A stretch of DNA of 64,000 bases from Candidatus Aenigmatarchaeota archaeon (GTDB taxonomy: Archaea; Aenigmatarchaeota; Aenigmatarchaeia; Aenigmatarchaeales; JACQIB01), in assembly GCA_016198755.1 (NCBI GenBank), contig JACQIB010000001.1, positions 32,001-96,000 of the forward strand, given 5' to 3'. A model generated the notes under the pieces. It had not been told where the DNA came from and made no database searches. It saw only the letters and a program-made list of their open reading frames with translations. This document shows positions 1 to 39,070 of the stretch, one piece after another; position 1 is the stretch's first letter, and every line of letters starts with the position of its first letter. Both the position numbers and the translations under genes were made by a program.

Positions 1-31
1 TGCAGGTGTTCACTGATTAAAGGGGGACGTT

Positions 32-122
32 AGAAAGTGCAGGATAATGCGTGGTGGGTAATTCTTCCTATTTTTGATTTGATTAGTTAGAATTATCTAC
101 CCAAATCTTGGCTTTCCGTGAA
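32..122 (+). other. rRNA intron 1 (about 91 nt hairpin, relaxed BHB), near E. coli 23S position 2576
   Basis: Splits GGACGT/AGCTGGG. Long stem GAAAG/CTTTC, CAGGAT/ATCTTG, GGTGGGTAATTCT/AGAATTATCTACC. Bulges TTA (30-32) and AAA (121-123) flank ACG/CGT. Boundaries +/-1 nt. Confidence 0.8.
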
Positions 123-143
123 AGCTGGGTTCAGTACGTCGTG

Positions 144-508
144 ATCTGACAAGTGGGTAACGCGGGAGGAAAAGGTCTTCTAGTGAAAAATGACTGGAAA
201 ATGTTATCCAAAGATTTCACAAATCTCATGCCTCAGATGAACTATATAGCTTAAGCTTTAGCGCTAGCAATGACTATAGTATACCTGGCATGGAAAATAA
301 TAGATCAAGCTTATAGGGAAAATGAAGTGAACAAAAAGAAGTCACATCTGATTCCCATAAGAAAATTCTCGGGCTATGAATGAACCGTCCCAAAGCACCC
401 GGCAAAATGTGCGTTCGGAGTAGCTAATGAGCCTTGCTATGAGAATTTTTACAAGCTTGGTTTTACTTTTAAGAAGACCATCCTGCATTCCCATTTAACG
501 AACGATAG
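144..508 (+). other. rRNA intron 2 (365 nt) in the helix 93 loop, E. coli position about 2593-2594
   Basis: Removal restores ACGTCGTGAGACAG. BHB core GTCG(138-141)/CGAT(503-506) with bulges TGA and AGA. No ORF of 60 aa or more lies within it. Confidence 0.85.
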
Positions 509-574
509 AGACAGTACGGTTTATATCTTCTGAGGGTGCATAAGTGCCTGACCCGAAGGAGCGGTGAGTACGAA

Positions 575-605
575 ATGCTTACACTTAGCTGTGCGAGCAC
601 GCAAA
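575..605 (+). other. rRNA intron 3 (31 nt) inside the sarcin-ricin loop tetraloop
   Basis: Removal gives AGTAC-GAAA-GGAAC. Stem TGCT/AGCA, core TACG/CGCA (3 of 4 pairs), AAA bulges at 573-575 and 604-606. Confidence 0.75.
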
Positions 606-646
606 AGGAACGCCGCTTCGCGGCCTCTGGTTGACCAGTTGTCGTA

Positions 647-694
647 ACAGCTTTAGCTATGGCGTTAACACGCAGAGAGCTATTGCTGCGATAA
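647..694 (+). other. rRNA intron 4 (48 nt, canonical BHB) in the helix 96 loop
   Basis: GTT-GTCG-TAA-CAGC...GCTG-CGAT-AAA-GGC; cutting after the second base of each bulge gives TGTC-GTAA-GGCA, a GNRA hairpin. Confidence 0.85.
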
Positions 695-1048
695 AGGCAA
701 AGCTGGGCAGCTACGCTGTAGTCTTTAAGGCCTGAAGGCATCTAAGGCCGAAATGATCGGGGAAAAGAGGCATTGGCCACAGGCTAGATAACCTGTTTGA
801 TAGGAGCCGGGTGTAAGCACGAAGCTTCGGCGACGTGTTCAGCCTGGGCTTACTAATAGGCCATTAATTTTGCATAAAGCAAGTTAGCTTGCCAATAGAA
901 ATATTGGCTTGCGAAGCAAGCTTTTGCGAATGGTGTCCAGACCCCCTTAAGTTTCCTCTGTTGGCAGATTTTTGTTCTTTAACAATTTAGCGTTAGCTAT
1001 AAAATCTAAAACAAGAAGGCTTAAAACCTTCTGCTCCAATTCTTTCAC

Positions 1049-10625: not shown

Positions 10626-13600
10626 GTGAAAAAAATGGGATATGGATGGGGAAAGGATTTGAAAAAGCCCGAGTTTACAAAAGTCTCGGATGTTATTTGG
10701 GAGATTCCAACAAGCTTTAAGAAAGGAATGAACGTTCCAGCAAGAATATACGCAACAAAGCAGATTCTGGATCAGATGGACCTGATGGTTTTTGACCAGA
10801 TAACAAATGTAGCAACGCTTCCAGGAATTTTGAAATATGCTTACTGTATGCCGGATGGACACAGCGGCTACGGATTTCCAATAGGCGGAGTTGCAGCAAT
10901 GGATGCTGTTGAAGGTGTGATATCACCTGGAGGGATCGGATTTGATATCAACTGCCTCCACCCAGACTCAAAAATTTCTCTTTCCAATGGGACTTGGAAA
11001 AAGGTTTCTGATTTAGAGCATGAATGGGAAAATAAAAGAGTAAAGTTTTTTAATATAGAAAACAAAGCAGTTGAAAATGCCACACCCATTATGTTCATGA
11101 AACGTATGGAGGATAATAGTATTTTTGAAATAGTAACAGAAAGCGGAAGAAAAATAAATGTTACGGCAGAACACCCCATTCTAACTCAAAGAGGGTTTAT
11201 CAGAGCCGATAATCTGAAAGAAACAGATAATGTTTACACTCAGCCATTCAGCGGTGTAGAATACGAGAAGCCATCCGACGAGGTCATAGTTTCCTATGTT
11301 GACATAGAAAGAATTTTGGATGTCATAGGAATAACAAACTCTGGAAACGCAAGAGTTCAAATTTTAAATACACTTAAAAGAGTTGGTTTAAATGAAATAC
11401 GGTACAATTCCACGGCCCTGCCAGCTATTTTGAAAATAATGGGATTTGTTTTTGGAGATGGTTGCATATCTATATTGTCAAAAATAAAAAAAGGGATGAC
11501 AGCCTTTTATGGGAAAAAAGAAGATTTAGAAACTATAAAGGAAGACATAAAAAGTTTAGGGTTTAAAGCACAAAATATTTTTTCAAGGCAACGAAAACAT
11601 AAAATAGAAACTTATTATGGAACAAGCGAATTCGATTTTACAGAGCACTCTCTTTTAAAAAAATCCACAGGATTTGCAGCACTTCTCATAGCACTGGGTA
11701 CGCCACATGGAATTAAAACCTCTCAACCTTACAGGATTCCAAAATGGATAATGAAAGCACCTCTATGGCAGAAAAGACTATTTCTCGCAGCATTTTTTGG
11801 AGCAGAGCTTTCCTCTCCAAAAACTATTAATGCATATAATTTTTATATGCATCAGTTAAATATGAACAAACTAGAAATTCTAAAAGAAAATGGCGAAGAA
11901 TTTTTAAATGATATACGTCTACTGCTTTCTGAATTCTGTATAACATCTACATATCCCACTATAGTAGAAGGTAACCAGTATGTAGGCAAAAAAGGAAAAA
12001 CTATAGGTTTAAGAATTTGTATACATTCAAATCCGGACAATTTGGTCAAGCTCTATGAAAATGTGGGATACGAATATAATAAAGAAAAGTCAAATTTGGC
12101 CTGCCTTGCAGCAAATTACACACGCCTAAAGGAATCCATAAAATCACATAGGAGTGACATACGTACTTTGGCTCTTGAAATGTATAAATCAGGCGAAAGA
12201 CCGCGGGATATTAGAGCCGCTTTACTACAAGAAAACATATCAAAAAATTTTATAAACCATTCTATATGGCCTGATAGGAGCAATAATGTAAGGTTGCCTG
12301 CCGCATCAATTACTTTTGCTTTTGATGAATTCAAGAAAAATCTTATAGGAGATGGCATTGTTATCGACAAAATAAAAAAGATCGAACAACACCCCTATAA
12401 AGGATTTGTATATGATATTACAATTAACAATGAAAACCACAATTTTATAGCCAATAATATTATTTCTCACAATTGTGGAATGAGACTTGTTACTACAAAC
12501 CTTACTCTGAAGGATGTACAGCCTAAGCTGAAAGAACTTGTGGATAAGTTGTTCCAGAAGGTTCCAGCGGGAGTTGGTTCAGAAGGTTTTCTAAAGCTTA
12601 CAAAAGATGAGTTCAGGAAAGTTGTTGAGGAAGGGGCAGAGTGGTGCGTGAAAAAAGGATATGGATGGGAGGAAGATTTGCAGAGGACAGAGCTGTATGG
12701 GAGATGTAAGGATGCTGATGCAAAGAAAATCAGCCAGAAATCTGTGGATAGGGGGTATAGCCAGATAGGAACTTTAGGTTCTGGAAATCATTATTTGGAA
12801 ATACAGCATGTAAAACCAGAGAACATTATTGACAAGGCTACAGCAAAGGCATTCGGAATTTTCCCTGATCAGGTTGTAATAATGTTTCACTGCGGTTCCC
12901 GCGGGTTTGGCCATCAGGTTGCAACAGATTATCTTAACACTTTCCTTTCTGTAATGGAAAGCAAATATAAAATAAAGATTTTAGACAGGGAACTTGCATG
13001 TGCTCCGTTTAATTCTCCGGAAGGACAGGATTACTTTACTGCAATGAAATGCGGAATAAATATGAGCTTTGCAAATAGACAGGTTATTCTGCACAGGATT
13101 CGTGAAGTCTTTTCAGATGTTTTCAAACAGCCAGCAGATAAAATGGGTTTACAAATGGTTTATGATGTTGCCCACAACAGAGGTTCTTTGGAAAAGCATT
13201 TAGTGGATGGTAGCTGGAGGGAAGTTATTGTACACAGAAAGGGGGCTACTGCGTGCTTTGGTCCCAACAGAACTGAAGTGCCAAAAATCTGGCAATCCAC
13301 TGGTCAGCCCGTAATTATTGGTGGTTCAATGGAAACAGGTTCATACCTTTTAGTTGGTACAGATAAGGCAGCAGAAACATTTTTTTCAACTGCCCACGGA
13401 GCAGGCAGAACAATGAGCAGGACAAAAGCAAAGGGATTATGGAGAGGGGAACAACTTGTGAAAGATATGCAGAAGAAGGGAATTTACGTGCGCACAGTAT
13501 CTTTCCCAGGATTAGCTGAAGAGGCTGGTGGAGCTTACAAAGATATAGATTCTGTTATAAATGCTGCAGATTTGGCTGGTATTTCAAAGAAAGTTACAAA

Positions 13601-13631
13601 ACTTGTTCCAATAGGAAACGTAAAAGGTTAG
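10626..13631 (+). CDS. rtcB: RNA-splicing ligase RtcB with intein
   Basis: MPDGHSGYGFPIGG, GFDIN/CG, GTLGSGNHYLE, HCGSRG, HRKGAT, STAHGAGR, YKDID. Confidence 0.97.
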   Translation: MKKMGYGWGKDLKKPEFTKVSDVIWEIPTSFKKGMNVPARIYATKQILDQMDLMVFDQITNVATLPGILKYAYCMPDGHSGYGFPIGGVAAMDAVEGVISPGGIGFDINCLHPDSKISLSNGTWKKVSDLEHEWENKRVKFFNIENKAVENATPIMFMKRMEDNSIFEIVTESGRKINVTAEHPILTQRGFIRADNLKETDNVYTQPFSGVEYEKPSDEVIVSYVDIERILDVIGITNSGNARVQILNTLKRVGLNEIRYNSTALPAILKIMGFVFGDGCISILSKIKKGMTAFYGKKEDLETIKEDIKSLGFKAQNIFSRQRKHKIETYYGTSEFDFTEHSLLKKSTGFAALLIALGTPHGIKTSQPYRIPKWIMKAPLWQKRLFLAAFFGAELSSPKTINAYNFYMHQLNMNKLEILKENGEEFLNDIRLLLSEFCITSTYPTIVEGNQYVGKKGKTIGLRICIHSNPDNLVKLYENVGYEYNKEKSNLACLAANYTRLKESIKSHRSDIRTLALEMYKSGERPRDIRAALLQENISKNFINHSIWPDRSNNVRLPAASITFAFDEFKKNLIGDGIVIDKIKKIEQHPYKGFVYDITINNENHNFIANNIISHNCGMRLVTTNLTLKDVQPKLKELVDKLFQKVPAGVGSEGFLKLTKDEFRKVVEEGAEWCVKKGYGWEEDLQRTELYGRCKDADAKKISQKSVDRGYSQIGTLGSGNHYLEIQHVKPENIIDKATAKAFGIFPDQVVIMFHCGSRGFGHQVATDYLNTFLSVMESKYKIKILDRELACAPFNSPEGQDYFTAMKCGINMSFANRQVILHRIREVFSDVFKQPADKMGLQMVYDVAHNRGSLEKHLVDGSWREVIVHRKGATACFGPNRTEVPKIWQSTGQPVIIGGSMETGSYLLVGTDKAAETFFSTAHGAGRTMSRTKAKGLWRGEQLVKDMQKKGIYVRTVSFPGLAEEAGGAYKDIDSVINAADLAGISKKVTKLVPIGNVKG
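10953..12473 (+). mobile_element. Intein (507 aa) with LAGLIDADG homing endonuclease
   Basis: Starts CLHPD after GFDIN, ends SHN before C; block B TAEHP; MGFVFGDG and LAAFFGAE; more AT-rich than the exteins. Confidence 0.95.
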
Positions 13632-38762: not shown

Positions 38763-39070
38763 GTGTGTTGGGGTTAGCCCGCCTTTTGTTCGCCTGCCCG
38801 GTTTCCCGGGCGCGCGGCGCGGCAGCATTTGTCTAAGCAGCCTACCCGCTGCTCTTTATTCATTGCAGCCTACTTGGCCTTGCACCTTGCTGGTTTTGCG
38901 TTCCAGAGACATACTTCACATTTGTTCATCAGGTCCCTTTTTGCGCTTCCTGTCAGTCTCCCAACAGCCTTTTACAAGGCAGCATTTTTCTGGTGGGCGG
39001 AGCTTCCTCCCCGCTAGCCTCCCCCCGAAAGGATCAGCTGAGCAGGGGCAACTGCCTCCCCAACTCACAC
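38763..39070 (-). ncRNA. rnpB: Archaeal RNase P RNA
   Basis: Minus strand GAGGAAGCTCCGCCCAC and GAACAAAAGGCGGGCTA; complementary termini GTGTGAGTTGGG/CCCAACACAC; GC-rich. Confidence 0.92.

Follow-up and report, generated by a model that had tools for sequence, protein, structure and literature searches.

A probable BHB-type mini-intron in the sarcin-ricin loop of an Aenigmatarchaeota 23S rRNA gene, apparently left over from a mobile intron

Introduction

The tetraloop of the sarcin-ricin loop (SRL) in large-subunit (LSU) rRNA serves as a contact of the translational GTPases, and cleavage of its alpha-sarcin bond inactivates ribosomes. The genome of a Candidatus Aenigmatarchaeota archaeon carries 31 additional nucleotides at this point, which raises the questions of what kind of element can be accommodated there, how it would be removed from the rRNA, and where it came from. 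The original prediction had taken the insert for an intron with relaxed BHB junctions and had supposed that the need to splice it might serve as a maturation checkpoint. We analysed the same stretch of 64,000 nucleotides, here called the window, together with the rest of its genome, the genomes of relatives, a collection of species genomes, and metagenome contigs.

In BHB-type introns of archaeal tRNAs, a stretch of four nucleotides in the exon base-pairs with four that lie close to the intron's 3' end, and cleavage takes place after the second nucleotide in each 3-nt bulge. The endonuclease EndA cuts such introns and RtcB joins the exons, and the intron is released, often in circular form. 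In the tRNA-intron literature the strict motif is named hBHBh' and the relaxed one HBh'. Our results indicate that window positions 575-605 are very likely a BHB intron in its relaxed HBh' form, which interrupts the SRL within its GNRA tetraloop and was most likely left behind by a mobile intron.

Results and Discussion

The insertion lies in the only LSU rRNA gene of the assembly

The genome, a metagenome-type assembly of 0.89 Mb in 6 contigs that is 89% complete, contains one LSU rRNA match, which spans positions 1-2987 of the Rfam archaeal LSU model with 1902 bits. The worry that this rRNA copy might be a pseudogene is thereby removed, since it is the sole match in the assembly and is of full length, and no spare copy is left to consider. 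The 5' end of the gene lies upstream of the window, at position 27827 of contig C5 of the window's own genome (G000:C5:27827), and its 3' end lies at window position 876; an end at window 1-81, given by the whole-gene Rfam scan, was rejected after scans of sub-ranges. Positions 2724-2973 of the model aligned to window 541-862 (153 bits, E 2.5e-44), and at the SRL, in the loop following 'AGUACGA.A', the alignment holds 36 nt vs 5 in the consensus. Window 575-605 thus forms a 31-nt insertion in the SRL tetraloop of this single gene, in agreement between the Rfam alignment, the intronless relatives, and the original prediction. We take window 567-574 to be E. coli positions 2654-2661, and A574 and A606 to be E. 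coli 2661 and 2662, the two sides of the alpha-sarcin bond. The parts of the locus are as follows.

1..876, + strand: 3' part of the LSU rRNA gene (Rfam alignment; 3' end at window 876)
561..566, + strand: 5' strand of the SRL stem (exon), GCGGTG, pairing with 611-616 (RNAalifold)
567..574, + strand: end of exon 1, the 5' half of the SRL, AGTACGAA; 569-572 are the exon side of the central helix (sequence)
575..605, + strand: predicted ORF-less BHB mini-intron of 31 nt (Rfam alignment, BHB geometry, covariation, shuffles)
576..580, + strand: 5' strand UGCUU of the intron helix h', pairing with 595-599 (GAGCA); 9 of 9 pairs covary
582-584 with 591-593, + strand: inner extension of h', 3 bp (folding, RNAalifold)
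600..603, + strand: intron strand CGCA of the central helix, pairing with exon 569-572 (UACG)
604..606, + strand: predicted 3' splice-site nucleotides AA/A (the slash marks the cut), in an internal loop with unequal sides instead of a strict 3-nt bulge
606..616, + strand: start of exon 2, AGGAAC (606-611), and 3' strand of the SRL stem, CGCCGC (611-616) (sequence, RNAalifold)

The whole gene is about 2 kb longer than the 2987-position model, and the excess is spread over many insertions. About 880 extra nucleotides fall in its 5' two-thirds, and upstream of the window (locus L001, 4300-5560) model positions of about 2030, 2136 and 2560 are followed by roughly 42, 270 and 375 inserted nt, respectively.

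The insert fits a relaxed BHB motif supported by covariation

In the window, exon UACG (569-572) faces intron CGCA (600-603) in a central helix of three pairs and one A570/C602 mismatch, and a 5' bulge of A573, A574 and A575, with the cut predicted after A574, separates this helix from h'. Such a fit, counted when at least three of four pairs with exon UACG and at least five contiguous adjacent pairs could form, was matched by 122 of 200,000 mononucleotide-shuffled versions of the insert. Folding of the single sequence was undistinguished: the window stretch gave a z of -0.99, 31 of 200 shuffles folded equally well, and the predicted fold contained the exon stem and the intron hairpin, with the central helix absent. 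The support for reading the insert as a BHB intron comes from its comparison with other genomes.

All 16 complete introns found at this site in genomes combine exon UACG with a bulge AA/A or AG/A and an adjacent h' of 3-18 contiguous bp, the sequence of which varies from genome to genome; AG/A is the bulge of the Atabeyarchaeia-type introns and AA/A that of the others. The intron strand of the central helix reads CGUA in 15 of them and CGCA in one, that of the window. It is CGUA again in all nine introns from metagenome contigs, and hence in 24 of 25 SRL introns, with the window having the sole mismatched central helix. When 10 mini-introns were given to RNAalifold without guidance, the program arrived at a structure made up of exon stem, 4-bp helix, 3-nt bulge and h'. 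Compensatory changes were present in 14 of 21 pairs of this structure, including 5 of 8 in the exon stem, and all nine h' pairs covary with both sides changing; the set includes related genomes, and the counts of changes are not numbers of independent events. Paired cells amounted to 94.8% vs 68.2% in shuffles, none of 500 reaching the observed value, and slid controls gave 29-55%. Beyond what the BHB motif needs, the bodies of the mini-introns are unconserved.

At the 3' splice site, RNAalifold places an internal loop whose two strands have 3 and 8 unpaired nucleotides, and the exon stem begins 3 nt and 8 nt away. A second 3-nt bulge flanked by an outer exon helix, as in strict hBHBh', is absent; the arrangement is that of the relaxed HBh' form. 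The motif thus departs from the strict form, so splicing would depend on an endonuclease with relaxed specificity. The relaxed junctions named by the original prediction recur, with covariation, as the same architecture in 25 introns at the SRL site, and the boundaries given by the BHB geometry are those it had drawn, 575-605.

Introns at the SRL site occur in three archaeal phyla

A survey of archaeal LSU genes for insertions at this point had been suggested together with the original prediction. Ours yielded 25 complete introns at the SRL site, 16 of them in species genomes and 9 on metagenome contigs, distributed over Aenigmatarchaeota, a Woesearchaeote and Asgard Atabeyarchaeia. Scanning for the 3' junction across 185,579 species (one genome each, with the window's own genome left out) returned 48 loci. 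Sixteen were SRL introns, namely 12 of Aenigmatarchaeota type, one of which ends at a contig edge, one from the Woesearchaeote, with 564 nt, and three from Atabeyarchaeia; the other 32 loci, all bacterial, lacked SRL context and were dismissed as chance matches. A search of metagenome contigs with the mini-intron pattern gave 10 loci, nine of them real and 29-48 nt long, and the tenth (L102) was discarded, as it showed neither the h' helix nor SRL flanks. Three metagenome contigs carry an identical copy of one Atabeyarchaeia-type SRL intron. The Asgard mini-introns on Atabeyarchaeia chromosomes and a contig (L048, L056, L072) measure 34 nt and stand in a GAGA exon context, and the Atabeyarchaeia mini-intron has the central helix as in the window with a different body.

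Closer to the window, the homologous region was sought in 60 relatives and matched in 39 (40 of 61 counting the window's own genome). The SRL was contained in 27 of 29 relatives' loci, where 23 read AGTACGAAAGGAAC free of any insert, one has the GAGA form, and three have larger inserts at the same point (242 nt in G002, 628 nt in G005 and 221 nt in G037). Across the class, a pattern search of 371 genomes found the SRL 3' pattern in 179, of which at least 13, from six families, carry an intron-type 3' junction among the matches listed. In both searches the carriers are scattered beside intronless relatives.

The exact sequence expected after joining of the exons is read in the 23 insert-free relatives' loci and in most of the listed class rows. 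When the SRL intron and the two LSU inserts upstream of it (32-122 and 144-508, described below) were taken out in silico, the gene was colinear with an intron-free relative: over 202 alignment columns with 76% identity, no gap reached 8 nt. A pairwise alignment with low gap costs to another relative gave nothing useful upstream, because that relative has introns of its own.

GAAA is the usual tetraloop of the clade

The original prediction had observed that splicing would give a GAAA rather than a GAGA tetraloop. Splicing would indeed yield GAAA, but it is not the cause of this sequence, because intronless relatives across the class read GAAA as well. Among the class rows listed, almost all read GAAAGGAAC and four read GAGAGGAAC. 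By these comparisons, GAAA is the normal tetraloop of the clade and not a by-product of splicing. The position that we take to be E. coli 2661 (window 574) is G in the Rfam archaeal consensus and A in nearly all listed class members. In a sample of the Woesearchaeote's class, the SRL pattern was found in 68 of 121 genomes, with 36 GAAA, 30 GAGA, one intron and one GCGA; in the GCGA genome (L104) the adenine targeted by ricin is altered.

The substitution of A for G might have been driven by the selfish SRL intron itself, or by escape from its endonuclease, and in a second reading of the same data the mini-introns would confer immunity against re-invasion. The idea is suggested by the splice site abutting E. 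coli 2661 and by homing copying the exon flanks of the donor, and also by the state of the base, which is fixed as A in the class richest in these introns but varies within that of the Woesearchaeote; we consider it unlikely.

The introns at the SRL site form a series from endonuclease-bearing to minimal forms

By length, the SRL introns fall into three groups. Those of 29-49 nt, to which nine of the genome introns and the nine from metagenomes all belong, are ORF-less; those of 221-242 nt hold gene remnants; and those of 564-640 nt, from 4 genomes, hold an intact LAGLIDADG gene. The proteins of the last group, 179-193 aa long, match LAGLIDADG_3 in 4 of 4 cases (Pfam, E 2e-21 to 2e-15), and those of the Aenigmatarchaeota and the Woesearchaeote share 37% identity (E 3e-36). 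A PDB search with the intron endonuclease returned only a weak match to I-MsoI (E 0.0019). Neither of the 221- and 242-nt introns has a Pfam match, and the ORF of the 221-nt intron resembles the full-length proteins in its N- and C-terminal parts, with the middle missing. In the 31-nt insert, the search for a LAGLIDADG ORF found no ORF at all. A group I intron was also considered for the SRL insert and rejected, as Rfam gave none at the gathering threshold and 31 nt are far too short.

Several mini-introns have their first and last ten or so nucleotides in common with the large introns. In the window's family four states of the site are found side by side: absent (G001, G004), full (G005), remnant (G002) and mini (G000, the window's own genome). 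We infer that the window intron is most likely what deletions have left of a mobile intron that once encoded a homing endonuclease of the LAGLIDADG type; this ancestry is based on the short end motifs and the shared site, the body not being alignable. A selfish element in decay is indicated by the patchy distribution and by the existence of forms with a homing-endonuclease gene. The gain-decay-loss cycle of homing introns matches the SRL series, and such a cycle has been noted for rRNA insertions in CPR bacteria (PMC11270868) and for 16S introns in Thermoproteales (PMC4496867).

The genome encodes the enzymes that splicing would need

Two adjacent EndA genes, coding for proteins of 178 and 173 aa, were found in the genome, each with N-terminal and catalytic Pfam domains, which suggests a two-subunit splicing endonuclease. 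A gene for the RNA ligase RtcB lies within the window.

Contig C1 of the same genome (G000:C1), about 37.7-38.6 kb (L090 1462-2521), outside the window, minus strand: pair of EndA paralogues (Pfam)
10626..13631, + strand: gene of the RNA ligase RtcB, split by an intein (Pfam, ORF of 1001 aa)

In the RtcB ORF, the Intein_splicing domain occupies residues 117-616 of 1001 aa. The ligase expected for both split rRNA exons and tRNA exons is therefore itself interrupted by a mobile element.

Proposed splicing of the SRL

In the precursor, exon UACG (569-572) would pair with intron CGCA (600-603), and the ends of the intron would close a hairpin by pairing of 576-580 with 595-599. The 5' splice site would then lie within the 3-nt bulge AA/A that separates the central helix and h', and the 3' splice site two nucleotides beyond the central helix, in the loop. 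The two-subunit endonuclease would cut at 574/575 and 605/606, and RtcB would join A574 to A606. The predicted junction is AGUACGAA joined to AGGAAC, which in RNA would appear as an exon-exon read running from ...GGTGAGTACGAA to AGGAACGCC..., and the spliced product would be AGUACGAAAGGAAC, identical to the SRL of the intronless relatives. The exact position of the cuts within the run of A's, which we infer from the BHB geometry, is immaterial to the product, because any choice within the run gives the same sequence.

Such an intron would be shrinkable, yet removable only by exact excision. Imprecise deletion would destroy the SRL, a constraint peculiar to this location, which may be why the intron stays near the minimal spliceable size.

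Alternative explanations

A splicing intron that decayed from a mobile element has to be weighed against four other accounts of the same 31 nt. According to one, the intron was selected as a gate, so that GTPase activation waits for EndA and RtcB; this is the checkpoint of the original prediction. The presence of the intron would make SRL function hinge on splicing, mini-introns are maintained in several families, and a similar idea of late quality control has been published for the excision of helix 98 (PMC7758197). Against a gate, the carriers amount to 13 of 179 class genomes among the matches listed, spread over six families beside intronless relatives, and the intron body is conserved no further than BHB requires; the endonuclease-bearing forms suit selfish spread followed by decay. 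We regard an adaptive gate as quite improbable and find the checkpoint claim unsupported, with patchy distribution and homing-endonuclease forms pointing to selfish decay and to an element that probably has no adaptive role. The intron might also be excised and the two halves left unjoined, which would leave the LSU rRNA fragmented in the SRL in the manner of Pyrococcus helix 98 or of bacterial intervening sequences. A break between the positions taken to be 2661 and 2662 would be the very lesion that alpha-sarcin makes and that inactivates ribosomes; moreover, RtcB is encoded in the genome, and the SRL is continuous in the intronless relatives. Excision without religation near the SRL domain is nevertheless documented, in Pyrococcus furiosus H98 (PMC7758197), and we consider a fragmented SRL very improbable.

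The 31 nt could otherwise be kept in the mature rRNA as an expansion at the tip of the SRL, in line with the richness of DPANN rRNAs in insertions. A retained insert would give no reason for a complement of UACG in 24 of 25 inserts that range from 29 to 640 nt and are in other respects unlike, some inserts at the same site bear endonuclease genes, and the tetraloop is contacted by translational GTPases, so that retention is barely conceivable. The chance that the insert is an assembly artefact or belongs to a dead gene copy is negligible: the assembly is of metagenome type and in 6 contigs, but its one LSU gene is matched over the full length, independent assemblies show inserts at the same site, and the shuffles make the BHB fit improbable by chance.

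Relation to known introns and processing events

A close parallel to the SRL intron is found in the 16S genes of Thermoproteales, for which Jay & Inskeep (2015) described hairpin BHB introns of <50 nt (PMC4496867). These are likewise ORF-less, shorter than 50 nt and have kept the BHB motif, and at the same sites, as at the SRL, other genomes hold LAGLIDADG-coding or remnant introns; the coding, remnant and hairpin categories of that study correspond to the three length groups reported here. The Thermoproteales introns are in 16S rRNA, whereas the SRL intron lies in a 23S tetraloop, in DPANN and Asgard hosts, and has a relaxed 3' loop (PMC4496867).

Tsurumaki et al. (2024) reported for CPR bacteria a site 23IS14 at 'position 2657' with group I introns that encode LAGLIDADG_1, in a catalogue that took in only inserts of at least 100 bp (PMC11270868). 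Both families are LAGLIDADG mobile introns in the SRL region of 23S rRNA with ultrasmall, intron-rich hosts. Those of the CPR bacteria belong to group I and splice themselves, with a stated position a few nucleotides upstream and LAGLIDADG_1 proteins (PMC11270868), whereas the SRL intron of the window would be spliced by proteins through its BHB motif, measures 31 nt, lacks a group I signal, and has relatives with ORFs of the LAGLIDADG_3 type.

For DPANN, Nawrocki, Jones & Eddy (2018) noted BHB introns alongside group I introns in LSU genes, and the window's gene resembles theirs in having several BHB-type introns (PMC6125680). The group I sites tabulated there are LSU/1923, 1931, 2500 and 2593, and no SRL site is named in its text. 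A further processing event, the excision of helix 98 and circular permutation of the Pyrococcus furiosus 23S rRNA (PMC7758197), resembles the SRL case as LSU processing of the tRNA-splicing type near the SRL domain; the H98 excision lies outside the SRL and leaves a discontinuity, whereas the SRL exons need rejoining.

In the literature searched we found no archaeal intron at the SRL, although the figure and supplement of PMC6125680 may list further sites. The remark of the original prediction that no intron had been described here therefore stands for archaeal BHB introns in the literature searched, but not for introns in general, given the CPR group I site at about 2657 (PMC11270868). The SRL is thus a new, recurrent, cross-phylum site for a known kind of intron. 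A highly conserved ribosomal element tolerates an intron in archaea, and if the splicing proposed here is true, the alpha-sarcin bond is broken and rejoined in every large subunit. The intact endonuclease gene, the remnant and the hairpin of about 30 nt form a natural series in which the decay of protein-spliced introns can be studied, with an endpoint that would be a minimal form, spliceable yet not losable. Annotation of DPANN and Asgard LSU genes, phylogenetics, and primer design should expect short inserts even within 'universal' motifs.

Neighbouring inserts and other features of the window

Besides the SRL intron, the final 900 nt of this gene contain three inserts that follow the BHB scheme.

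32-122, + strand: BHB-scheme insert of 91 nt in the peptidyl-transferase region, also present in one relative (G004)
144-508, + strand: BHB-scheme insert of 365 nt in an H93-like loop of the peptidyl-transferase region; an insert at this place is common in the order
647-694, + strand: BHB-type mini-intron of 48 nt in the GNRA loop of the neighbouring hairpin on the 3' side of the SRL

The mini-intron at 647-694 would pair exon GUCG with intron CGAU and splits its loop where the SRL loop is split, after the third of four nucleotides. This loop has inserts also in G012, G024 and G222, and none in 20 other sequence variants. The inserts at 32-122 and 144-508, which the Rfam alignment had fused into a single gap of 458 nt, contain no ORF and give no group I signal; for the large one, a group I intron was rejected after a search of L001 5640-6220 gave no Rfam group I match at E<=1.

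ARAGORN found no tRNA gene in the 64-kb window. An archaeal RNase P RNA is encoded at 38763-39068 on the minus strand (112 bits, full-length model), with an insert of 27 nt in an early hairpin.
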